A stretch of 64,000 nucleotides of DNA from the NCBI GenBank assembly GCA_008632985.1, contig QPGO01000061.1, forward strand, positions 186,001-250,000, in the 5' to 3' direction. Positions 3,078 through 64,000 of the stretch are shown piece by piece (the first letter of the stretch is position 1; every line of letters starts with the position of its first letter). The notes below the pieces were generated by a model that worked only from the letters and a program-made list of their open reading frames with translations, was not told the origin of the DNA and did no database searches. Both the position numbers and the translations under genes were made by a program. This DNA is from Psammoneis japonica (taxonomy: Eukaryota).

Positions 3078-3416
3078 AATTCACCCAAGCCTTTGGCCCA
3101 CCACTTCATCTCACACAGCTCGGAAACTCACGCTCTTCCACCACAGCTTTTAACAAGCTCTCATGACAGGGCACTTCACTGACTCAGCAGCAGCAGCTGA
3201 GGGGTTTCTCTCCTCTGCATGCCAAACCCTGGGCTGGGTGTGCCTGATTCACCCAAGCCTTTGGCCCGCCACTTGATCTCACACAGTTCAGAAACTCATG
3301 CTCTTCCACCACAGCCTTTGATGAGCTCATGACAGGGGGCTTCATTGACCCAGCAGCAGCAGCTGAGAGAGGGGTTTCTCTCCTCTGCATGCCAAACCCT
3401 GGGCCAGGTGTGCCTG
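3078..3416. repeat. Tandem duplication, about 170-bp unit x2
   Basis: ttcacccaagcctttggccc...ctctgcatgccaaaccctggg occurs at about 3079 and about 3248. Confidence 0.85.
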
Positions 3417-25064: not shown

Positions 25065-26690
25065 GATCCTGACCACCCTTCTCACAGGCAACTTCTGACG
25101 CTGTTAAAGGCACAAATGCAAAGGTTTCATTTTGAGTGAGTTGTGTAGACCGTGATTTTTCATCACATGTCATGGCACACCATTTTTCACCATGGGACCC
25201 CTCCTTCACCTGTGGGACCCCTCCCTCAACTGTCAGAATTCCGTCCCTTTTTACCTTTTGAAAGCAATGTTCATGACGTTTTGTTCATTGACAAATTGGC
25301 GCTGATCATTGAGTTGCGCGTTGGTTTAAAGAACCTTCTGTTGCATGCACTGGTTGTCAAATGAAAGGTCAGATCATGCAACAATTGTCCCTAAAATGCT
25401 GTGTTGAACCTTGTGACTGTTCACATTGAAACCTGCTGCATTGCTTGTCCACTTTCCATTTGCACACTAACAAAAGCCTCCGCTGCCTTTTCACACCGCA
25501 GCTCGCTCATGAACTGCAGACGCGCTCCAGACGCAGGTGGGAATCCATGTGACATTGGGCCCGTAGAATTCTGCGTGCGAGCTCCGCATTAAAATTGTCA
25601 GGCAATTAAAATGTCAATGTTCGCCAACAGAAAATGAGGCAATTTTGCGAACGCACAAACTCGTCCATGATTGAAGAACATCATTTGTTGCTCAGCTGGG
25701 TGCATTCTTCAGACATTGAAGAATGTAACTGGCACGTTGTTGTTTCTATAAATTTGTCATGTAAAACGTCTGGGGCTTCGCAAAACAGCGAGTCTGGACA
25801 ATTTTTTTGAAATGTTGCACGTAGAAAAGTGCTCGCGAAACACACGACGGATGACAAAAATTTTTTGTGTCACACGTCAGCACTGCGAGCTCCCACCTGG
25901 GGCTGGAACGCGTCTGCATCTGCACTCGTTTCGCTTCCTGCATCACTGTCTTCCTCCTCCTCCTTGCTGTCCTCGTCTCCTCTGTTCTTGTCCGTTTCCT
26001 CTTCCTCCTTCTCCTCATCGTCACTTGAAAGCTCCATTGTTGCCTGGGTTCTTGCCTTCATCTCCACCGGCTTTTTCTTTCTTTTCGATCCCTTGCCTCT
26101 TTCGTCACTCTTCCTTTTCTTGCCTTTGGTGTGCCATGTGTCGAGCTGCATGCCCTCCTCACTCAACCTGTCTTTCTTTGCTTCCGCAAGCAGTTCATTG
26201 AATTGCAACATCCCTGCATCCTTCCACGAGTCTCGTTGCCTCAATGGGTCTGTGCACTTGGGTGTTGGTTCCGACTCTTCCTCATCCTCTTCGTCCGAGC
26301 CTGCCCCTGCTCCAACAGTCTTGTCATGACGTGCCTTGTGCTCCCAACTCTTCCAGCAGTTCTCCAGTGTCAACAGCGCCAGAGCCTCATTGCTCGCTGT
26401 AGCCAGACCGGTTGCCTTTGTCTCACCTGACTCAACCTTCCTTCTCCATGTCGTGGTGCTCTTCGTGAATTTCAGGATGTTTTCGCAGAACCAAGCATGT
26501 GCTTCCTTGTTTTGGCGCTTGTCCTCCACAATCATTGTCACTGTCTCCTCCCAAGTCGCCAGGAACGGCTCTTCCTCTTCCGCATGATCGTTCTTCTTCC
26601 TCTTCTTGCCCTTCTTCCCTCCTCCTCTGCCTCTTGATGCCGGCTTCTTCTGACTGCGCATCTCCTCGGCTTTGTTTTCTGTCAACACGA
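25065..26690 (-). repeat. Copy 2 of the degenerate transposon-associated ORF repeat, interrupted by a MITE
   Basis: Colinear with 17660-18900; contains ORF 25870-26688. Confidence 0.75.
25519..25914. mobile_element. MITE, same family, intermediate conversion
   Basis: TIRs gacgcgctcca / tggaacgcgtc; TSD TGCA. The paralogous site at about 18097 lacks the insertion. Confidence 0.92.
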
Positions 26691-26957
26691 CTCCAGCAAA
26701 TTAAGGTGCAGCAGTGTCAAGTACAACTGCACTTTACAACAACAGTGCAAGCAGCACGAGCACAATGACAACCGCCGCCATTGGGGTCGATCTCTTTGTC
26801 AGAATGTCGTTCTGCGACGCACTGTACCGGTGGTGCGTGGAAGCAACAACAAGCAACTTTCATTCGTGAACCGCGACCAGAAAGCGCGACCGAGCGAGCG
26901 AGCGAACCCGTCCACCACGCACAACATGCGTGTGCCATAGCTGCGCGCAGCAATTAT

Positions 26958-29900
26958 CCCCCGTGAAGATTTTCGTCTGTTTTTTGTCCGTTCGTGCCCA
27001 CAGGGGCACGAAAGGAGGCTACGTAGGACTGTGCCAGCAAATCCTGTAGATGCACGTTTCCATGCCAACAAGATTCATGAACCTCTCAAACGAAAAGAGA
27101 CAATGGCGTTCGTTCTGGATCAACGCCATAGTTGCCACGTCTGAAACCGCAGCGCGCCGCTTTTCTGCTCGTAGACTTGTACGCTGTCCTGGTACAAAGG
27201 TCATTGCATGCACAGAGTCTACGATGAGGTCACACTGAAGGAAGAATTCTCGAATTTGAATTCTCAGCAATCAACCGAGTTTGTTTACTTTCTATTTTTT
27301 TATGCTGCCAACCAAGTCTTACAATCACACATCCCTGATTCTACCTGCATAAGACGACACTGAGATTTCAGTCCACACATGAGTTCACTTGCACCAATGG
27401 ATGAATCGGCGTTGTGCTCGGTGACGACGTCCGAATCAGATTGGGTGGAGCATTTCAATCCAACAGAGGACTTGAATTTTTGCGACGAGGATCTCCACTT
27501 GATTGAGGACAGCTTGATGGATGAGCATGATAGAACCGAGCAGTCAAAGGACCGTCCAAAATGGAAAGTGGACAATGATGGGAAAGATGTTAAGATTGCC
27601 TTTAGCCAAGCTCCCCAAAAGGTGTGGGAGACGGCCAAAGCCGAGATTACAGAGTGTCAAGGTCATTCAGAATGGTTCCAAGGACGCAAGCATGCATTGA
27701 CCTCCTCTGGTTCTGATGCTCAAGTTTCAGTTCACCTTAGATTGGACAAAGCGCGAGAGCAGAGGCAGTCGCATTGGGTGTGCCTTGAGAAGCATCTCGA
27801 CACGGCATCTGGTGTCGAAGATTTGGTGTGTCAAAATGATGACGATGATGCGGCACCGGCTCAGAATGACAATGATGATGCCACTGCACAATCCAATCCA
27901 ATGACTGTTGGTGAAGGGAATGCTGCTGGCTCAGAGGACACCGATGATGATGACATTGTAGATTGGGCTGAGTTGGAAAAACACTTAGATTCAGACATGG
28001 AAGAGGAGGAGCGGATTTCTGTTATCGAGAGTCGCCGTTGGGAAGCAAAGGAGGCGTTGAAGAAAGCAAAGGAAATTCTTAGTGATGCAGTTGACTCCAC
28101 CAAACGAAATGAGGTGTTGCGAGCCAAACTAATGTCGGAGTTGAAAGCTGGCGAGCACAAGGATCTCCTGAAGGCGTTCGTCAAACAAATGGGGTGGAAG
28201 GTTTGTAAGACGCACAAGGCAAACCTGAAAAACGCAGTTACGTGGCTAGAGTGTACCCCCGCCTCTCGACCCTACATCGTGCTGAACAAGGAGCAACTGA
28301 AGGTAAGCATGTGCAATTGCTGCTACTGACATTATTTTACTATAGATCTAACCGAGTCGCTCCGAACCATTATTTGCTGACAAAGGCAAAATACCGAGAA
28401 TGCATTAACAGCACGATACCGTCGAGTGTGACAAAAAACGATGACTTCATAGCGATTCTGAGCGGTGAAGTCTCCGCACCAGTTGCAAGAGATGGCGATA
28501 GTGAGCCAAAAACGCCACTGGAAGCAATGGTGAAAACCACTTTTCTTCCACCACTCAAAGGTGAGGCGGCGGAGCTCTGTAGATTGGGACATGAGATGGA
28601 AGAACAGTGCGGAAAAGATTTTCTTGGTGTTGCAAGCGGCGAAGGAGTGCGACTCGAAAACAGATCCGTATTTGTTGCAAACAATCTCTTCAGAGCCGGC
28701 CTGCTACAGAAGCAAAATCGCCCTTATCAAAAGGACAGTCCAGACTTCCTCTGCACTGGAACAATAGACGATAAGCGAATCGTAGCGGTTGTCGAGATGA
28801 AGGCGCGTTGCAAATCTACTACCGCCGCCAAGGAGCGTCAGCGCATCTCCGAAGTTGGTGAATTTTCGTTTGTATCATGTGATTCGCCTGAGTTACGCAA
28901 GTTCATACTTAAACGTTCAGAGGCAGTTCAGGTGAGCTGATGCACGGAATAACTATTTGATACTGTCGTTGTAACGGTAACTCACCTCAGTCTCCACGAC
29001 TTCCTCGCTACAGTGCGCTCATCATGCAAGCACCCTTGGAGTCAACCACGTCATTCTTGCCACTGGAGACAGAGTAGGCCTTACAGCAATGGTGGTTATT
29101 GAGTGCTCCGACGAGTTCCTTGAAAACTACGAAAAGTGCATCAACGACATGTACGAGTCGGCATTGAAGTGGGCGTACGAGGAGGGCGTCGACATTCCAA
29201 CCGAAGAGCTCAAGGCTGCTGTGAAAACTGCACGAGTAAAGGTGGACTATGAGTCATTTATGAAATCAATTTACTTTTGGAAAGAACTGACGAAGCCTCA
29301 GTACTTACCACTCCCACCGTGCGAGAGGATCATTCCCATGCAGGATGCGTACTGGAACAACACCAAGCATGGGTCGGACGTCAAAACCCAGTACTGCCAA
29401 AACCTATCAGCCCCAATTCCTGTCACATCTGCCGGAGCTAAGGCATACGACCGCATGCAAATGACAGCACTATCCGACATCCACAAAGGCGCTACCATGT
29501 TTATTACCAAGGAAGATCTCAACCAGTGCAATTCCCTTCACGACTTCAGAGACGATGCAAAGCACAAGATGAGCTTCAGAAAAGCACTCCTTCGATTGTC
29601 TAAGTTTTTCAAGAAGCTGAGCCAGCAAAATCTCCAAAGTGGAATTGGTTCTCCTTCGTCTTTTACAGGGATCGTTACACCATCACCAGCAACTCCAGTA
29701 CAGCCGCCGAGGTGGATGCGCGGTGAAATTCAAAAGGAACCAACCAATTTTGTAGCAAAAGGAACTGGAAAGTCTCCCAAGCGCTCTCACCTAGAAGCTC
29801 TACTGAAACCAAAGGACAGTTCTGAAGAGGTCCCTTCCAAGCGATTCAAGAGTTGTCGGGGTGTACCTGTGTTCAGAGCAAATGAAAACAATGGAAGTAA

Positions 29901-30368
29901 GAAAGGGAGTGGAGCTTTGGCGCGATGTATCATGTGCGACTCCAAGACACATTGGTATTGCTCTGGCTGTCGTCAATGGTATTGTTGCGATAGTCCCCGT
30001 CCGCAAAGCGCTGGAGTCCCATACTTTCAAGATTCGTCAACGTACCGTGATGGGAAAAACAGGGATCGACCAATCGCCGGCGTGTACACATGCTTTATGC
30101 ACTGTCACCCATCCATTGTGAACCAGGGATAGTAATATGTATTTGTATTTAGTGAATATATCATCTTTTTTGACCACCGGCGTAATTGTAGTACTTTGGA
30201 ATATCATTTGTTGACAAGACGAGCGTTGTGTTGATGCTTTATCAATGAGAGCCGGTGTTTGTTTTGCACGTACAACTCGGTATGAAACCTACAGGGGGCG
30301 TCGTTCGTGCCCACAGGAGCACGAACTTTTGCGTTCGTGCCCACACGCGCACGAAACTATCACGCGGG
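26958..30368 (+). mobile_element. piggyBac-like DNA transposon (3411 bp) carrying a YqaJ-like nuclease domain
   Basis: TTAT|cccccgtgaagattttcgt ... acgaaactatcacgcggg|TTAT, an imperfect TIR with CCC/GGG ends. Hairpin subterminal motif ttcgtgcccac....gcacgaa at 26991, 30304 and 30334. One spliced ORF inside. Confidence 0.75.
27379..30132 (+). CDS. Element-encoded protein (about 862 aa; exons 27379-28302, 28386-28931, 29014-30132): YqaJ/lambda-exonuclease-like PD-(D/E)xK domain plus piggyBac-like C-terminus and Cys-rich domain
   Basis: GT-AG introns 28303-28385 and 28932-29013 join three ORFs in frame. YqaJ-like motifs: LGHEME, AGLL, DSPDF, VVEMKAR and Q-CAHH. WNNTKHGSDVKTQ resembles piggyBac YNxxKGGVDxxDQ. 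CIMC..KTHWYCSGCRQWYC...CFMHCH resembles the piggyBac CRD. Confidence 0.75.
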
Positions 30369-30940
30369 TTATGGTGGGTGGAAATCATCGCCCATGACAA
30401 TCACAACAACGAACTCGCTCTGACCCACAGAAAGATGGCAGCCTCCAACGAGAAGAGGCAGAGCAATGTACTAAATTGCTTTTCATTGCCGACAATATGA
30501 TGACTTTGAGCGACATGAGGCTATCCGAACCATCGTGTCAGTGATGACGTCAACCGCGTCAATGCCAATCTCACCGCTCATCAATCGTGTGTCACACACC
30601 GCTTCTCCAAGATTCTACGACAGGACAGCCGTATGGAAAGCAAAACAGGTGTTACTCGGGCGAATAAATGAGAACCCTTATTCCCGCCATTTTTTCCTAT
30701 GACAGCTGTCGTCGATTCTACGCACCGGTATCGTACAAGGTGTTACGACATGACTGAGCATCGCGAAATCGACTTCTCATCCTTCTCATAATTTTTTTTC
30801 CATTTTCCTTTTAGCAAAAACACTTTCTCAACAAACAGGTACGTTCTCTGGAAGCATGAACGAGTCACAACAAATCAAATCACCATCTCTCTAACGAAGG
30901 AAACATACCTGGTCCTAATTTGTACCCAGCGTGGACTATC

Positions 30941-44871: not shown

Positions 44872-45765
44872 ATGCATTTGGGCATCTCTCGTCTTTTTGT
44901 AACCGCCGTTCTATGCTGAACGCGGCATCTTCGTACTCAGACAATTTTTTACTCTACATTGTTCTTGATTCTTCCGACGTAACTATCTACCTAGATTACA
45001 ATTACTACCAAGTATTTTCAAACTTGCTTTAGTTTAATGTAGTTCACTGATTCCCCAAGATGTGTCTATGCAGTTCGGTTCAAATGCCCTTTGCTAGTTC
45101 AATTTTTGATCCAAAAAGTGTTGAGGTTCCCATCTTCTTTTGACCGTGATCCGTTCGTTCACGATGCGCTCAGCGCTCGCCGGGAAACGACACGAAAATT
45201 TTTCGATATGTGCTGCGGACAGGTAACCTTACCGGTAGGGCCCTCTCTACTCTAGAGAGGAGACGGTAGGCCCTCTAGAGCTAGTAGGGCTAGAGTCGTC
45301 GAGTGCTCGTTCCGAAACGCCTTTCAAGGAAAATCACTCTGAACTCGAGAAGACACGCGGGATTCAAAATTTGGTGAAATCAATATATGAATTCATATAT
45401 TTTTAATTTAAAGTACGCATACAGTATTAGTTCTTGCGACCATAAGTAAGTAAAAAATATGGCGCGAACTCTGTGTGTGTATGCAGTTTCCATCACAATT
45501 TAGCGGCACCGCTGAAGTCCGTTGGGCTTGTCTCGCCAGTCACTAGCCATCAACCCCCCTTTATCACACGGCGCAATCAACTGCTCCTTGTTATACTCAG
45601 ACTCATTCATTCCTCCGAAAAATGCTACATTGATAGGCCAGGATACGTACTTTTGCATCTGTTCTCTCGGATCCGCGGCAGCTTTTTCAACAGAAGCGAC
45701 AGGTACCTTTTCCTCAGCCAACTCGCGACATTCCCAGAAAAACGATCGAAGCTACTTTGGGAACA

Positions 45766-46647
45766 ATGAAGGCTTTATCATGTATCGTTCCCTCTTTGTG
45801 CACGGTTGCTCTTGCCTCGACACGCAAAATCCTCGATATTCCTCCTCCCCACTTTTCCAGATGGCGACACAATCCAGTCTTCTTGAAAGCAAGCAGCAAG
45901 GACACCAAAGTCATTGGGCATCATTCGAAAGACGAGGGTTTACCACTTGGTGTGCCGTTTGAGTTTGAGACTCCTCTTTTTAAGGGACAAATGCTTGTTC
46001 GGTTACGAAATGCCAAGTCAGACTCACCGGATCAACACAATGCCTACTTTGCGGGCAATAGCAAGAGACTCATGCAGACTGTTGTCCAGGGTAAATTCAA
46101 GAGACCTGTTTCCATGTCTGACGTTTTTGTCGGAAGCTTATTCCGAAAACCTCTCAAGAAGGTACCACCACGTTGCTTTGTGCGTGTTATGAATACCATT
46201 GTCAGTCGAGTTTCACCAGGAGTAGTTTTGGATCTCGCCTCTCAGAAACCCAAGATTCTGTCTCTGTACGCTGGGTCTGCGCAGACCTTTAGCGTGGATC
46301 TGCCAGGAGATGAACCCGATATTTCTGGGAGGGATATTCCCGAAAATGTGTCTCGTGCATTTGGTCACAAATTCAAGTCCATCTCTTCCCGTCGAAAGAA
46401 AATGTCCTCACCCAAATCGGCGAAAAAGTACTGGTTCGACACGAAGCATGTTTATACCTTTCATATGCACGACGATGCCATGGATTATGCCAACTACAGC
46501 ATGCATCTTCCCATGTATGGTGACTATGATCTCAGCCAGGCTCTAGGGCCTCAGCCCATGACCCTTACGGCCGTGACTTCCAAAGGTGACTACCTCTTTT
46601 CTTTTGATGTCTGGCACGAGAAAGTCTACCCCCGCGAGGAACTTTAA
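45766..46647 (+). CDS. DUF1769-family protein with signal peptide (tandem paralogue 2)
   Basis: Colinear with and highly similar to 43984-44871; ATG at 45766. Confidence 0.8.
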   Translation: MKALSCIVPSLCTVALASTRKILDIPPPHFSRWRHNPVFLKASSKDTKVIGHHSKDEGLPLGVPFEFETPLFKGQMLVRLRNAKSDSPDQHNAYFAGNSKRLMQTVVQGKFKRPVSMSDVFVGSLFRKPLKKVPPRCFVRVMNTIVSRVSPGVVLDLASQKPKILSLYAGSAQTFSVDLPGDEPDISGRDIPENVSRAFGHKFKSISSRRKKMSSPKSAKKYWFDTKHVYTFHMHDDAMDYANYSMHLPMYGDYDLSQALGPQPMTLTAVTSKGDYLFSFDVWHEKVYPREEL

Positions 46648-54561: not shown

Positions 54562-57500
54562 ATGAACCTCTGTCAGCCCGGAATTTTCGGTGACGATGAT
54601 GAGAGCATCTGTCAGAATTCCGACTTCTCGATTCGACGCGTTGGCAACTTGAACGTTGTTCGCAACCCAGTCACTGGACGGGAGCTAGGCATTTGCCACC
54701 TTGCGGGGATCATCGGATTTACCTTGATCGCCGGCGACGGTGAAACGTATCCATTTTCGTATTCCTACCTTCATGCCGCGACTGCTCAGCTTGCGATTCA
54801 GCACTTTAATACAGGCAACGGAACGATAGTGCCGGATTTTGAAGGCATCGACAAGCGGTGCCCCATCAGACTCTCGGCAGAGTGGGCGGATACCAAATTG
54901 TCTGAATTTGAGAGCTTGCGACTGCTTACCAAGATTGTCACGCGGAGCGGGGGAATCGATGATGTCTTGCCTTGCGCCATACTGGGTCCGTCGCGCTCCT
55001 CTTCCACTGTGCCGGCTTCGATTCTTTCGTCGGTGCATGGGTATCCGAGTATGTCGTAAGTTTAGAAGGTTTTCATCCCGTATGTATCAATTGTGACCTT
55101 GATGCCTTTCTCACTGTGAAGCTTTTTTTTTTGTTTTCTATTTCTAGATGGACTGCTGCCAGTGCCTCTCTAAGCGACAGGGATGAACGTAAACACCCGC
55201 TCTTTGCACGGGCGATAGTTTCTACAGATGAAGTTGCCGAACTTGGCGTTCGTCACATTCGGACAGAACTCGGCTTTGAACACTGCGCGTGTCTCTTTCT
55301 CAATGACGAATACGGCAGTGCGGTGCAACGAGCCTTTTTCGCCGGCGCCAATAACGCGGGCTTGACAACCATTTCTGTTCCCTTTCCCAGCACTCCCACC
55401 ACTGAACAAATACGCGAGGCAATCGCCAAAGTCAAGCAGACAGAGTTCCGTTGCATTTATGGCGTACTGGCTACATCTGATCAATATGAAGCCTTCATGG
55501 AGGAAGCATATCATCAAGGAATTGCCGGGGAAGACTATTTCTGGCTCATTGCCAATCCTATGAGGTTGGGTGAGTATCCAGCTGGATCGCCTCTTGATTT
55601 GGCTATCCAGGGCAACGGGTTTTTGGCGGGTGACGTTGGGAGAGGCCCCGGGATCAACCGTTTCAAAGCGTCTTGGGGCAGTTTGGATAGCAACGACTTG
55701 GAGTACCTCAATTCGCTGCTGCCTCCGACACCCTTCAACTTGACTGATTTTTTTACTTTGGGAGATCAAGATATTGACGCTGGCAACTTTGTGTATGACA
55801 CCGTGGCTGCGATCGGTCTAGCTGCATGCAACGTAACGAATAGGTCCGGAGGCAACTTTTCACTTTTCACAGGAAGAGAACATGCGCAAGCGATTATTCA
55901 AGGACGACCTTTTCATGGTGCTTCTGGCTTTGTCAGGATCAATCCACAAAGTGCCTCACGCACAGGAACCAGTGTTTCTTGGGACGTATCAAATGCACGA
56001 AGAAGCGGTCCCGTCAATGGAACCTCTTCCTTTGAGATGACTACGTCTGTGATCTATCGGCCGAACGAAGATGGGACCGACTGGGAAATGAATATCACCG
56101 ACCCATTTGTTTATGCGGATGGCAAACTGAATCCACCGGCGGATTTGCCACCCATCAACGGAGGCAACGGCGTAGATATGAATTATATCGGGTCCCTGTC
56201 AATTGTGGGTTATGTTCTCTTTGGAATTGTTCTGAGTTTTTGCCTCGCCTTTGCTGGCTGGACGTACAAGAACCGATCTGTCAGACTTGTACGCGCATCT
56301 CAGCCTGAATTCTTGGGAATGATTATTGCGGGTACAGCAATCTTTTCGTCGGCCATCATTCCACTGACAATGGACGATCAACATTACACATCTGAGCAGC
56401 TCAGTATCTCATGCATGTGTGTTCCTTGGTTGTTGGCAATAGGATTTGGCATCGCCTTGTCTGCACTGTTCTCGAAACTGTGGAGAGTACGGAAGATTGT
56501 GGGCAGCGCGTCAAGGTTTCGACGTGTTCAGGTAAAGCCCAAAGAAGTCATGGCACCCCTTTTGGTAATATTGACGCTTAACGTCATTGTTCTGATATGC
56601 TGGACTGCGCTGGCGCCACTAGAGTTCTTTCGGGTGCCCGCAGTGGGGACCGACAAGTTCAACCGCGTGATTGAGTCATACGGCGAATGCTCAGCGGCCG
56701 AGACGGCTGCGGCAGGAGGGACCACCCCTTACTTAGTCCTTCTCCTGGTGATAAACTTCTCTGCCACTGCAGCGGCACTCATTGAGGCCTACCGCACGCG
56801 GCATGTGTCTACCGACTACAGCGAGTCAAAATACGTCTCTATTGCTGTGATATGCATTGTTGAAGTTTTCGTCGTCGCGATACCTCTGATTGCACTCATC
56901 GAACGAAACCCGCAAGTGTCTTTCATTCTAACTGCCTCATCATATTTATTATATCGATGGCGATCATAATGCTGGTATTTGTGCCCAAGGTATGGTTTGA
57001 AAGACAGGAAAGATTTGAACTCGAACAGAAGAAGAAACGGAGAGCGGAACGATTATCTAGCCAGCAATTTTCAGGTACGTCGTTGGCGAGCGATACAGAG
57101 TATGGCTTGGGAGTGTATGCTCTGCCTACAATTGAGCACACCATGGGCGGCAAAATTCGACGGAGCCAGCTACCATTGGTAAACGGAGCCGAGGAAAGTA
57201 CGAGGGGGGCAGCGGTGGATCCCGACACAGGTGAAGAGTCACCGAGTTTGGGAGGTTGCGTTCACCCTGATATCGAAAACACTCAGTCGGGTGACATTCT
57301 AGAGACGCAATCGCGTCAGATGCCCGCAGAAGATGAACAGGAGGAACCTCAGCTCCCTGAAGAGTCGCCGAGTTTGGGAGTTTCCGTTCACCGCGATAAC
57401 AAAAGCACACAAGCAGAGGAAATTCTAGGAACGGAATCGCGTGAAATGTCCGTGGTAGAAGAAGACGGAGATGAGGAACCTCAGCTTCCGCATCTACCGG

Positions 57501-59739: not shown

Positions 59740-62700
59740 TTTCACACAACAAAGAGCTTTCAACAATGTGACACATTCGCACAAGCAGGGCCCGAGCAAA
59801 TCTAGCTGCCGAACAGGCTCAGCCACTCACAGTCTTGGTGCGACAGCGCGAATGCAACCGACAAGATGCTTCTGGGCCTGTTGCAACTACAACAGATGCA
59901 ACAAGTGAAAACCATTCCGTGGTCATCGGCATTTTGGTCCGCACACCAGTCACAGTTTCTCCACAGCACCTCCCAGAGCACACCAGACAGTCCCTGATGC
60001 ATCGGATTTCACTCGGTCCCCTCGAAATGTGCCTGACTCGTAAGGCACAATTCGATCCAATGCTGCATCAGTGGTCTAACTGAAACAATCTTGACTTGTC
60101 GATCGACGTAAAACCCTTGCCAGGGAAAAGCCGCCAATCCTCCATGCATGGTGCAAACCCTCACCAGGGAAGAAACTCACCACCGCTCCATGCATCCATC
60201 TCAATGCGCGAACTTGTCTAACAGAAAATTCCGCCTGATGGACGACACAACCTTCATGAACAGATCGCCAAGGTTTGTCTCTGTTCCCTCCTTTGCAATC
60301 CTAACAGTCCCCGCAGCAACAGCTTCGCAGTTGCGGTGATGCGCAATGGAGTGATGCTTCTTCTTGAGTGTAGACTCAGGAATGGAGCAATTCTTGTAGA
60401 TGGCCTCATTGTCACAGAAGACATTTGTTGGCCCTTCGATCGGCACTCCAAACATTCGAAGCTTGTGTCGCAGGCCCTCTGTGAGCTCGATGGCACTCTT
60501 GAGTGCAACGATCTCAGCCCCAAATGTGCTAGCCTCCACGGCATTCTGACACTTCGAGTGCCACACGATGGGTGCCCGGTTAACAAACATCAAGATGCCT
60601 GCATGGCTGCGGCGATCGGCAACATTTCTGGCATGGTTGGCATCCACAAAACAATGTGTCGACACCACATTACCTCAAGCTGGTGGTGCATTTGTCAGAA
60701 TGGCTTCTCTTGCATCTCGGTGGAAGTCGCACCAGTCGCACTTCACGAATCGTGATTCATCGATCTTGGGATGAGCCGGATCAAATGCTGCTTGGCACTT
60801 TGGGACCTGTTTGAGGCATGCAAAGATGTGCAACACCTGTTCCAGATGACCAATGCGAGGAAGAGCGAGGTGAGCAGACATTGACGAAACCTCCAAATGG
60901 ATGTCCACTCTGCCGAGTTCCACAGCCCAAACCAGTGTGCCAATCAGCTCTTGACAGCAGTGAAGTCCTTCAGCGTCCAACTCGCCAGCAGTGTCTAACT
61001 GGGTTTGCATCCACTGCTCAATGGGGTTGTCGCCTTGCCAGGCAGACGTTTCCCCTCCTTGCCAAGCCTGTCCTCTACATTTTGGACAGCGGACTTGCAG
61101 TGCTTCTCCGCAGACATTGGCCAACAGGCAGTCCCATCGGCTGAAGTCATCTTGGAAAGCGCAGCACCGAGACAAGAATCTGGCTCAGCTACCTCATCAC
61201 CCTTGAGCTTGAACTTGGACCTGATGCCATCCATTGTCTTCATGGGTTCGTGACTGATCGACAGCATGTCGTCCACATAAACTAGAACGTGTTCGCAGTG
61301 CTTGAATCCGTTGGGTTTCACCGCAGGTCTCATCCATGCATCCGGATCAGCCTTGCTCGGTTTGCACCCCAGATCATAAAGCGTCTCCACCAGGAATGCC
61401 CTGAACGCTGCTCCGGAGCTCTTCAATCCGTGTGGAGCCCTGACCACAATCATGATGCAACCTTCATCCTCGCCAAACTCGGGCCCTGCTCTGGTCCAAA
61501 TCTTCTCCCTGCAAGGGGCAGCAAGGCAGGCGTTCTGGGTGTCACATGCAAAGACTTGTGAGTCATTGAGCGCAGCAAGCGTCAGTGCAATCCTCACCGA
61601 ATCCCGAGAGACGACCGAGGAGCAAGTGATGTGTGCGGGGGTTTCAGCAGTGTGGCCTCCAGCCACCATGTGAGCTTTACGGCGGAAGTTTTCTCCCAAT
61701 TTGACATCAAAAATCACACGACACTTCACTTCCTGGAAACCAGGCACCATGTCCTTAAGCTCCCCTTCACACTTGTCAAAAGCAATCCACACATTCTTCA
61801 TCTCCATGCAAATGGCGTCCCACCACAGGGTGTTGCCATTTGCGCGATCGATCTGGATCGCCTCCTCGACACTCTTCGGGATCCGTGTGCCAAATTTGTG
61901 TGTTCGTAGCCAATGCTTCGACTTGACCTTCGCAATGGAACGCTTGCGGGTTTTCATGACATGGGGAACCCACCAAGCAAACGCTGCCTCGTTCGAGATC
62001 TTGCACTGAATGGCAAACTCGGCAACTTGGACTGGGAAGCTCTCCTTCGCAATCTTCAAGTCGATCCAAGTAGCACTTCCATCCTTCCATTGAAACAAGA
62101 GTTCCCATCCTTTGGCAGTCTTGCGCCTCTTCCGAATGCCTTGCTCGGTCTCAAAGAACTCGGATTCAGGAACGTCCCCGTTGGTGCGGCAATCAACGAT
62201 CTCGTCAAATGAGACATGCCGGTTTCCGTCCTTGTCGATCTGAGCAAACATGTTCATGGCGATGGAGTTAGCAGAGAGTGCAGCATGGTGCCCATCAGGG
62301 TGCTCTGCCTCATGCATCCTTGCATCAAGGATGGGATTGTCATTGGCTGTTCCTGTCGGAATGCCATTGGCATCTCTCAACCTCTTCGTGACACGAGCAC
62401 ACTCAGGACCATCATCATCTCTTGGAAGCGCAACTTCCATGTTAAGGTGTCCCCAGTCCGCCGCCTCCGGTGAGGCTTCCTTGTCTTTCTTGTCGTCATC
62501 GTCATTTGTTGCCTCCTCTGAGGATGTGACACGATCACACTCATCGAGGAATTCATCGTCGTATCCAAGGCAGTCTTTCCAGTCTTTGGGACTGATCTTG
62601 CGATCCTCGTCATCGGGGAAGTCTTGCTCCTTCAACCGGCGCTTGATCTCCTCGTCAAAACTGTCAAACTTCGCCTTTTTCTCTTGAGTGGCGGCTTCTA

Positions 62701-64000
62701 AATTGGTGACTCGTTGAACAGAAGTTCTCGAAATGACACTGCCTGTCTGTGTCAAAACGTAACACGACATGAGACTCCCTGTTCTGTGAGACACACCAAG
62801 CCACCCGCCGAGCTTCTCGTCCCCTGGACCGGCATTCTCCCTGTGCCAGACCCAATCATAAAATCCAAAGTCAAGGCACTCCGAGATGTCCACGGTCTCT
62901 CCGAGAACGTTCTCCAGTGGTGCTCCAGCATCCAAATGATGTGCTCTAAGGAACGTGTGAGACATGGTCTCACATGTCCATGTAAATCCGCAGTCCCACA
63001 GTCGCCGCGGTGCTTGCTTCTTGACCATGATGCGGAACCACTTGCGTCCAACCTCACGTACAACCCCTTCTGCAGGATTCTGGTTGTGTCGATCGGGTTC
63101 GATGATGTGACAATCTGTGCCCTCCTTGCGCACGGTCTTCACGAACTCCGTGCCAGGTTTTGTTTGCTCCTTAGATCCATCCATCAGGAGTTTCTCTGGC
63201 ACGCCAAATTCCTGGCAAAACATCTTGAGAGCCTCACCAGCCTTGCTCTTCTTGTCCATGGGATAAATCGCAGCAAAGCATTGCTTGTTTGTAAAGATCT
63301 GGGCATGTCGATTGCCCTCTGGCGAAACCACCTTGCCATCAACCGTGTCGGTTGCCCATTCACCCCGTAACCTGGGCTTCGTGAACATCCGATCGGCCCG
63401 ATGGCATCAACCCATTGGCATCAACGCTGACCTGATGAGCTTTTGCGCAGTCTTCTTGAGCATGCTTGCTGCTTGCTTGAGTCCTGTGCACCATCGTTCA
63501 CTTGAGTCAGCAACCGACACATCACTGTGTCTCTCCTTGGACATGAATGTCTTCGGGAGTGCCAAGTCTTCAGGTCCTTCGCCGACAGTTTCCGTGGCAG
63601 AGATCTGGACTGTTGGCTCCGATTCCACATTAACGGCGGCTGTGAGCCTTGATTGGACTTGATCGACTCCACAAATGAATTGCTCATTGCAACAGTCCCC
63701 GGACTGAGGGTTGCTGCAGGCAGGATCAGCTTTGAACTCGTGTGTCAGATTGGCGTGGATCGTCGCAATTGACCGAACTAGCTCCATTTCCTCCTCCGCA
63801 GATCGTCGAGTTCCAATGGATTTGAACTCAACGGTCTGTGGATCCCAAGGTTGTTGGGAGGTCATCTGGATCTTGGGGCATTCGTGCAATTCCTGCTCTG
63901 CAGGAGTGCGAGTTGCCGCAACAATGTTGGTTCCCACAGCTTCAAGCGGCATCATGAAAGATCTGTCCTCTGTGAGGATGTGCAGTGGCGAATCGGAGCA
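59740..64000 (-). mobile_element. Ty1/copia (CoDi-like) LTR retrotransposon, 3' part; continues beyond the window
   Basis: Integrase-RT-RNase H domain order. Polypurine tract GAGGGGA on the minus strand at about 60017-60023. Putative 3' LTR at about 59740-60016, with an uncertain left boundary. Confidence 0.85.
60201..63955 (-). pseudogene. copia pol (integrase, reverse transcriptase, RNase H), frameshifted and hypermutated
   Basis: FCQEFGVPEKL..DGSKEQ, HNQNPAEGVVRE, FRRKAHMVAGGH, GLKSSGAAFR, VLVYVDD, FVDANHA, FCDNEA and LKKKHHSIA. Frame breaks near 63390, 61000 and 60670. Confidence 0.9.

Follow-up and report, generated by a model that had tools for sequence, protein, structure and literature searches.

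What kind of element occupies positions 26958 to 30368 of a 64,000-nucleotide (nt) stretch of the genome of Psammoneis japonica (GenBank assembly GCA_008632985.1, contig QPGO01000061.1, positions 186,001 to 250,000 of the forward strand), and does its transposase really enclose a second nuclease? A preliminary description of this stretch, referred to here as the window, proposed a piggyBac-like transposon whose single spliced open reading frame (ORF) embeds a domain resembling YqaJ and lambda exonuclease. We conclude, with a probability of about 0.85, that the element is a deleted copy of a diatom DNA-transposon family in which one transposase combines a piggyBac/IS4-type, ribonuclease H (RNase-H)-like core bearing three catalytic aspartates (the DDD triad) with a built-in nuclease. 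The idea of a piggyBac-related lineage with an inserted nuclease was borne out by full-length relatives and by predicted structures, not by sequence profiles.

The gene of the element lies on the plus strand and is made of three phase-0 exons encoding an 862-amino-acid (aa) product, as translated searches (tblastn) and alignment to relatives confirmed for the three in-frame exons and roughly 862 aa predicted earlier. Exon 1 (27379-28302, 308 aa) starts with an acidic N-terminus and a deletion junction described below; these are followed by the helix motif with which the nuclease opens at its N-terminal side, an acidic linker and a segment resembling SAP. Exon 2 (28386-28931, 182 aa) codes for the PD-(D/E)xK nuclease core, while exon 3 (29014-30132, 372 aa and the stop codon) carries the end of the nuclease, a helical linker, the motif around the third aspartate, a C-terminal helical domain and a cysteine-rich tail. 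Both introns have GT..AG borders. Intron 1 (28303-28385, 83 nt, phase 0) was placed by tblastn and alignment to relatives; its position is conserved, as the relatives P0154 to P0156 all run into the intron after ...QLK|V, and a low-depth contig of the set labelled X2 (record 8) joins 28303 to about 28387, that is, lacks the intron. Intron 2 (28932-29013, 82 nt, phase 0) was placed by homology to the relative P0001 (LKRSEALQ|CAHHAS).

The motifs named in the preliminary description are all present as it described them. GHEME (28587-28601), DSPD (28734-28745) and EMKAR (28794-28808, with EMK at 28794-28802) lie in exon 2, and the glutamine of the nuclease belongs to EAVQ|CAHHA, which spans intron 2. 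The N-terminal motif of the lambda-exonuclease/YqaJ-like domain, QGHSEWFQGRKHALTSS (27658-27708), was assigned from family conservation, and the structural match reported below starts at the equivalent point. A helix-loop-helix segment inside the nuclease module (28156-28251) appears SAP-like by alignment to relatives. Downstream, WNNTKHGSD (29353-29379), conserved across the family and located inside the span of the structural model that aligns with piggyBac, is the candidate for the third catalytic aspartate of the DDD triad, and it is followed by a tail with the conserved Cys/His pattern C-x2-C-x3-T-x3-C-x2-C-x4-CC ... C-x3-C-H (29926-30108). All of these features are on the plus strand. 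The window copy retains the whole nuclease, the third-aspartate motif and the cysteine-rich tail.

Its catalytic core is incomplete. The window protein runs from ...KVWETAKAE directly into ITECQGHSEW..., and about 370 aa found in P0001 and P0154 to P0156 are absent at this in-frame junction (...TAKAE | ITEC..., 27637-27654, plus strand; alignment A5 and tblastn), which falls at about 27646-27651, where an internal deletion near 27650 had been suspected. Residues 36-118 and 471-684 of P0154 flank the gap in tblastn. Three motifs of the family fall in the deleted part, namely DDDK, DRGY at a distance of about 80 aa, and GTV(K/R)R, so that the first two catalytic aspartate motifs, which the preliminary description had been unable to find, are indeed gone and WNNTKHGSD alone is left of the triad. 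Since the first two catalytic aspartates are lost, the DDD site cannot be expected to cut DNA and the element would have to be moved in trans. Judged from its sequence, the window copy is a non-autonomous, internally deleted family member, which of the piggyBac-like core has kept the C-terminal half only. Among the coding variants between copies, 14 of 26 (drawn from the best 40 of 119 variant places) are synonymous, compared to 33% for random transitions in the coding sequence, a modest sign of apparent coding constraint.

Exon 3 was compared to a protein library clustered at 50% identity and matched 440 cluster representatives at E ≤ 1e-3, of which 185 also passed E ≤ 1e-10 and 12 passed E ≤ 1e-30. 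Eighteen of the fetched relatives are at least 1100 aa long (1155-1382 aa) and share one colinear architecture; the closest full-length relative, P0001 (1208 aa), shares 44-52% identity with exons 2 and 3. Hosts could be named for 3 of the 26 proteins that were looked up, all of them diatoms: Seminavis robusta, whose protein is annotated in the genome as 'unknown protein', and Extubocellulus spinifer and Gedaniella sp. CCMP2646, whose proteins are derived from transcriptomes. The ESM Atlas contains one 56-member eukaryotic cluster of this type, labelled 'hypothetical protein', with SAP in 20% of its members, which we treat as a lead only. Metagenome contigs searched with a smaller family alignment (A3) and with P0154, and viral contigs searched with A3, gave no matches.

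The order of parts in the full-length proteins (about 1150-1380 aa) can be read from predicted structures and the family alignment. From the N-terminus onwards, they would comprise a helical DNA-binding region, a first strand (beta-1) bearing DDDK, DRGY about 80 aa further on, and a beta-rich insertion domain. The insertion domain would be followed by a module of about 500 aa, by the helix with the third aspartate in a WNxxKGGSD motif, by a helical domain and by a cysteine-rich, putatively zinc-binding tail. The 500-aa module itself is predicted to be a PD-(D/E)xK nuclease of the lambda-exonuclease/YqaJ type that carries the acidic linker and a SAP-like DNA-binding segment.

Residues of both putative active sites are conserved. 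In an alignment of 107 sequences, in which each column was counted over the sequences that span it, the first aspartate is present in 24 of 30 sequences and the second in 26 of 33, the remainder being gaps in both cases (6 and 7, respectively); the 6 sequences with a gap at the first aspartate are other deletion derivatives. In the motif of the third aspartate, W is found in 101 of the 107 sequences, N and D in 102 each, and K in 100; a further 4 have E at the aspartate position. As for the nuclease, D, E, K and Q are conserved in 74 of 83, 75 of 84, 76 of 84 and 90 of 96 sequences, respectively, and W, R and S of its N-terminal motif in 33 of 39, 34 of 42 and 36 of 42. Each tail cysteine is found in 91 to 97 of the 99 to 105 sequences. 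These counts indicate that both active sites have been maintained across the family. The D...E-x-K residues of the nuclease are presumably the counterparts of the catalytic residues of lambda exonuclease, an equation drawn from the motif rather than from a residue-level superposition.

We obtained AlphaFold models of two full-length relatives, P0051 and P0022, using the 107-sequence alignment. The model of P0051, a complete protein of 1196 aa, has a predicted local distance difference test score (pLDDT) of 85.5 and a predicted template modelling score (pTM) of 0.77; the corresponding values for P0022 (1190 aa, Seminavis robusta, CAB9497204.1) are 84.3 and 0.75. Residues 214-325 of the P0051 model form a beta1-beta2-beta3-alpha-beta4-alpha-beta5 unit, in which the first strand bears DDDK and the fourth is followed by DRGY. 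P0022 is without some 60 aa at residues ~215-220, including DDDK and strands beta-1 to beta-3, which all other full-length relatives possess; either it is a deleted copy or the gene model wrongly removed this part as an 'intron'.

Structural comparison of the P0051 model with 48,161 chains using VIA-align yielded the piggyBac transposase as a match (6x67_C, Z 23.3, root-mean-square deviation (rmsd) 4.5, 376 of 478 residues aligned, model residues 68-1037), together with piggyBat (9c0f_D, Z 19.7, 365 aligned), the Tn5 transposase (Z 16.8, 309 aligned) and the hAT transposase Hermes (Z 5.7). The same chain matched lambda exonuclease (3slp_A, Z 13.9, rmsd 3.5, 205 of 226 residues aligned, model residues 436-914) and LHK-Exo (Z 13.0). 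In the P0022 model, which is without strands beta-1 to beta-3, lambda exonuclease scored Z 14.1, piggyBac Z 12.2 and piggyBat Z 8.8. The match to 3slp_A covers 205-206 of 226 residues in both models, and residues 582-647 of the P0022 model resemble SAP-type structures (Z 4.3-5.7). Foldseek found lambda exonuclease with a probability of 0.99-1.00 but E values of 0.03-0.1. The alignments to 6x67 stop at chain residues 527-540, short of the cysteine-rich domain (CRD) of piggyBac. Thus the check by AlphaFold and Foldseek that had been suggested, carried out on full-length relatives, returned piggyBac/Tn5 and lambda-exonuclease folds in one chain. In the models, the lambda-exonuclease-type nuclease is nested between the beta-rich insertion domain and the helix of the third aspartate, that is, between the second and third catalytic aspartates, and belongs to the same chain as the piggyBac/IS4-type core.

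Among 25 further long relatives, Pfam assigned SAP to one (P0143, E 9.8e-6) and Rho_N to another (P0133, E 2.6e-6). The cysteine-rich tail was weakly matched to B-box, PHD or MYND fingers (E 0.012-9) in Pfam and in PDB sequences; no THAP or helix-turn-helix (HTH) family was matched in P0001 to P0003 or in the 25 long relatives. A profile built from the 107 members and compared to the sequences of the PDB gave zinc fingers at E 0.2-0.35 and lambda exonuclease at E ~1, in the latter case aligning the N-terminal nuclease motif to lambda exonuclease residues 13-57.

A natural variant has no nuclease. This is P0192, a transcriptome protein of Gedaniella sp. with 719 aa, which shares 74% identity with residues 1-455 of P0154. 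At the point where P0154 enters the nuclease, P0192 jumps to AFWNKTKHGSD and continues with the C-terminal half, so that exactly residues 439-934 of P0001 are absent and a compact DDD core results, with 80 aa between the first and second aspartates and 137 aa between the second and third. Since P0192 is without exactly the nuclease block, this block is a discrete module; and because its near relative P0154 carries the module, P0192 represents a secondary loss rather than the ancestral form. The loss could have come about through deletion or possibly through alternative splicing. The junction of P0192 (...GSN|DAFWN) coincides with an N|V codon boundary (AAY|GTN-compatible) in P0154 and P0156, and it also matches a phase-0 CAG|GAT boundary in exon 3 of the window (29341-29346, boundary at 29343/29344). 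It is conceivable from these boundaries that isoforms with and without the nuclease arise by alternative splicing.

Outside the gene, the locus has the hallmarks of a 3411-bp DNA transposon. The left terminal inverted repeat (TIR), CCCCCGTGAAGATTTTCGT (26958-26976, plus strand), directly follows one copy of the target-site duplication (TSD) TTAT (26954-26957), and the right TIR (30351-30368, minus strand), which reads CCCGCGTGATAGTTTCGT as its reverse complement, directly precedes the other (30369-30372). The two repeats are imperfect. The CCC...GGG termini (CCCCCGTG... from 26958 and ...CACGCGGG up to 30368) were listed in the preliminary description, and termini of this kind are a trait of piggyBac. 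A 22-bp palindrome, TTCGTGCCCACAGGGGCACGAA, occurs once next to the left end (26991-27012) and twice next to the right end (30304-30325 and 30334-30355, together 30304-30355) and nowhere else in the window, for a chance expectation of 0; it is a candidate transposase-binding site. The terminal and subterminal repeats are unequally spaced, which makes the two ends asymmetric.

Both ends and the TSD could be checked against X1, a public DNA data set of the same sample that contains 80% of the sampled words of the element. One X1 contig (record 2) starts exactly at 26958. Another (record 1, 846 nt) covers 26699-26953 and then 30369-30900, with 4 letters that fit either side, and skips 3415 nt. 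As this length is that of the 3411-nt element plus one TTAT, the contig represents an exact empty site with a single TTAT. A haplotype or cell line that lacks the insertion is hence present in the sample, and the length and sequence of the TSD are 4 bp and TTAT. The CCC...GGG termini and the TTAT duplication read in the sequence by the preliminary description are thereby confirmed. At the right end, an X2 contig leaves the element exactly at 30368 and continues into another flank, which starts with CTAA and is absent from the window.

The window contains a single copy of the element according to tblastn. Word depth in X1 amounts to about 700-1300 inside the element, whereas the unique right flank has a depth of about 51. 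The contigs matching the region number 344, 80 at ≥99% identity, 100 at 95-99%, 117 at 90-95% and 47 below 90%. Depth and contig identities fit many copies of several ages, the depth not being a copy number. The element is real, recently mobile and insertion-polymorphic. A domesticated host gene was also considered but rejected, since the locus has TIRs, a TSD and an empty site and is matched by many diverged contigs.

Other observations concern copies of the element. Contigs of X2 skip 28908-28985, 29228-29308 and 29863-30041, with ends readable as CT..AC, that is, GT..AG on the minus strand; one of them (record 12, depth 339) leaves the element at 30368 into another flank. The skipped segments could have been spliced as introns from an antisense transcript that runs through another copy, or they could be DNA deletion variants. 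Variants between copies (window 26400-30900) are strongly biased towards transitions (97 of the 119 listed places: 37 A>G, 24 T>C, 22 C>T and 14 G>A), which may reflect ordinary mutation bias or decay through cytosine methylation.

Could the long proteins simply be artefacts, in which gene callers or assemblers merged two neighbouring genes or a nested insertion? Most relatives come from short contigs of 3-6 kb, and ISL2EU elements carry YqaJ as a second ORF (PMC4482050). Yet the first two aspartates lie upstream of the nuclease and the third aspartate and the cysteine-rich tail downstream, so the nuclease interrupts one catalytic domain. The order is the same in 18 long proteins of different sources, including the annotated Seminavis robusta protein and an Extubocellulus transcriptome protein; in the window, the third-aspartate motif lies in an exon that it shares with the nuclease, and GT..AG introns leave the reading frame unbroken; and both models fold as one body (pTM 0.75-0.77). 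We consider a merging artefact hardly credible. ISL2EU membership is at odds with a single ORF that holds both parts.

A more specific competitor is the Kolobok superfamily, in particular its KolobokE lineage, as described in PMC9587614. Kolobok elements make TTAA-specific 4-bp TSDs, to which the 4-bp TTA-type TSD found here is similar, they have been reported from the diatom Fragilariopsis cylindrus, and KolobokE, like the present family, has a lambda-exonuclease-like domain. Kolobok termini are of the form 5'-RR...YY-3' in the same source, which sets them against those of piggyBac, whereas those of our element are CCC...GGG, and the Kolobok transposase is said there to share its signature with hAT, P and MuDR, whereas the P0051 model matches piggyBac (Z 23.3) and Tn5 (Z 16.8) far better than Hermes (Z 5.7). 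An aspartate as third catalytic residue (102 of 107 sequences) also speaks against Kolobok, and the nuclease separates the second catalytic residue from the third, rather than lying downstream of the transposase domain as in KolobokE. Termini and core thus set the family apart from Kolobok by way of that published description, not by direct comparison with Kolobok sequences or structures, and we regard a Kolobok affiliation as very improbable.

Somewhat less remote, though still unlikely, is a separate eukaryotic IS4/Tn5-like superfamily that resembles piggyBac through convergence only. Tn5 reached Z 16.8 in VIA-align, no Pfam profile of piggyBac was matched at any threshold tried, and Foldseek even placed Tn5 (chains at E 5.5e-5 to 4.9e-4) slightly ahead of piggyBac (6x67_C, E 3.0e-4), or about level with it. 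In VIA-align, by contrast, both piggyBac (Z 23.3, 376 residues) and piggyBat (Z 19.7, 365 residues) exceeded Tn5 (309 residues). Duplications made by Tn5 and IS4 are 9 bp or longer, whereas the duplication of 4 bp and the CCC...GGG termini of our element are those of piggyBac. The third catalytic residue of IS4 is a glutamate in a YREK motif; here it is an aspartate in WNxxKGGSD, which resembles the piggyBac motif. By predicted fold, termini, TSD length and aspartate at the third position, the core therefore seems closest to piggyBac. Given that a relationship between piggyBac and IS4 is generally assumed, the choice between the two readings is more a matter of rank than of kind.

Along with the Foldseek ranking, several results weigh against a piggyBac-related transposase with an inserted nuclease. 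The preliminary description had stated that the absence of YqaJ or piggyBac profile hits would refute it, and taken literally this is what Pfam returned. Neither DDE_Tnp_1_7 nor YqaJ matched the window exons (E ≤ 1 and E ≤ 10); no piggyBac family and no YqaJ matched P0001 to P0003 (E ≤ 10); and no piggyBac family matched the 25 further long relatives (E ≤ 0.1), among which the sole YqaJ (PF09588) match was in P0129 at E 0.017, with 15.9 bits for a cut-off of 22. Searches of the PDB sequences with phmmer and hidden Markov models (HMM) found no piggyBac protein, and lambda exonuclease only at E ~1. The modelled proteins are relatives 25-45% identical to the window protein, not the window protein itself. 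The likeness of WNNTKHGSD to the motif of the third catalytic aspartate of piggyBac is judged by eye, not from a residue-level alignment by a tool, and the splicing of intron 2 depends on homology, no read having been found across the joint. The TSD is TTAT and not the canonical TTAA, the right flank of the second copy begins with CTAA, and the target consensus amounts to these two sites. No other copy with both ends was retrieved and no autonomous partner was found in the source organism. Lastly, the role that we give to the nuclease is purely inferred. Because the Pfam profile fails and the TSD is not TTAA, we classify the family as a divergent piggyBac-like lineage and not as a canonical member of piggyBac.

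How might such a transposase work? The DDD core of piggyBac nicks the 3' ends of the element, forms and opens hairpins, and inserts at a target staggered by 4 bp, so that excision is seamless. The core of the present family would carry out a similar cut-and-paste reaction at a 4-bp TTA-like target, and the module, a nuclease of the 5'-3' exonuclease type aided by the SAP-like segment, would process DNA ends produced by transposition. We tentatively favour, at somewhat less than even odds but ahead of the other roles that we considered, resection of the donor break by the nuclease, followed by repair from the homologue or sister in which the element is kept, by analogy with the resection of DNA ends that enzymes of the lambda-exonuclease type perform. 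Were this true, cut-and-paste would become a net gain of copies. Alternatively, and more boldly, the nuclease might trim or cleave the non-transferred strand or the hairpin. More doubtful still is a transposase with two nucleases in the full sense, in which the module would act directly in the chemistry of transposition, by cleaving or resecting the non-transferred 5' strand, as a cis-fused analogue of Tn7 TnsA plus TnsB, or by resecting the donor so as to force homology-directed refilling, and in which it may be switched in and out. Whichever the role of the module, the window copy would depend for its movement, in trans, on a full-length copy able to recognize its ends and subterminal palindromes. 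Its reading frame is intact, and the 862-aa product, made of the nuclease and a C-terminal part that probably binds the ends, could be inert, inhibitory or helpful to transposition.

The element is surrounded by ordinary gene-bearing eukaryotic DNA. A family-3 G protein-coupled receptor (GPCR)-like host gene (54963-56966, plus strand; 7tm_3, E 9.1e-30, with an ANF_receptor domain) and a gene for a host protein with a Duc1 domain (45637-46644, plus strand; E 5e-46) lie in the window. An 803-aa ORF on the minus strand (60998-63406) contains a copia-type reverse transcriptase (RVT_2, E 5.1e-10), which marks a fragment of a long terminal repeat (LTR) retrotransposon close to the window's end. Next to the insertion on its left side, a 276-aa ORF rich in Lys, Glu and Asp (25870-26700, minus strand) had no Pfam match and an X1 word depth of about 3300-3400, compared to 51 on the flank; it probably belongs to a low-complexity repeat or to some other repeated element.

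What sets the family apart emerges from comparison with known systems. Canonical piggyBac transposases (Trichoplusia ni 6x67; piggyBat 9c0f) are the best structural matches of the full-length family protein, and the likeness extends to the CCC...GGG termini, the 4-bp TTA-type TSD with an exact empty site, the aspartate as third residue, the unequally spaced terminal and subterminal repeats at the two ends, and a cysteine-rich C-terminus, which may or may not correspond to the piggyBac CRD. The family differs from piggyBac in that its profile similarity to piggyBac is below detection and in its nuclease/SAP module of about 500 aa, and the present element in having TTAT instead of TTAA as its TSD. 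To our knowledge, the piggyBac members described so far rely on the DDD core alone, and in the open literature, which excludes Repbase and non-open journals, no piggyBac-type transposase that carries a lambda-exonuclease or other PD-(D/E)xK domain turned up. piggyBac is a major tool of genome engineering and a model for seamless cut-and-paste transposition. A large lineage with such a nuclease inside its catalytic domain, invisible to Pfam (440 cluster representatives at 50% identity) suggests an unexplored coupling of transposition to the processing or repair of DNA ends. In the genomes and transcriptomes of diatoms, elements of this family are left unannotated, as 'hypothetical' or 'unknown protein'; the insertion polymorphism of the copy studied here indicates recent activity, which bears on the evolution of diatom genomes and possibly on transposon tools for diatoms. 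Natural variants are complementary, the window copy having the nuclease but neither of the first two aspartates and P0192 a DDD core but no nuclease, and could guide experiments.

With lambda exonuclease and YqaJ nucleases (3slp, 1avq; LHK-Exo, 3syy), the module shares the predicted fold (Z 13.9-14.1 for lambda exonuclease) and the G-H-x2-E, S-x-D, E-x-K and Q motifs. It differs from lambda exonuclease, a free toroidal trimer, in being embedded in a transposase and split by an acidic linker and a SAP-like segment of about 220 aa, and from the YqaJ family in that the Pfam model stays below threshold (1 of 25, E 0.017). The bacterial Tn7 offers a possible mechanistic analogue: its DDE transposase TnsB works with TnsA, a PD-(D/E)xK nuclease that cuts the other strand, but these are two proteins and TnsA is an endonuclease, not a lambda-exonuclease-like enzyme.

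Among eukaryotic elements, ISL2EU is likewise a DNA transposon with a YqaJ-type exonuclease of unexplained function; its YqaJ is a separate ORF and its transposase is PIF/Harbinger-like with THAP and HTH domains (PMC4482050), whereas here one ORF is predicted to have a piggyBac/IS4-like fold. Accessory nucleases thus recur (KolobokE, KolobokD and the YqaJ ORF of ISL2EU), pointing to a general need that is experimentally unexplained. The nearest published analogue is KolobokE (Kojima and Bao 2022, PMC9587614), another eukaryotic cut-and-paste transposase with a lambda-exonuclease-like PD-D/ExK nuclease and a 4-bp TTAA-type TSD, from a superfamily present in diatoms; as that source presents it, KolobokE differs in belonging to a hAT/P/MuDR-like DDE superfamily with RR...YY termini and in that its nuclease lies downstream of its transposase domain.

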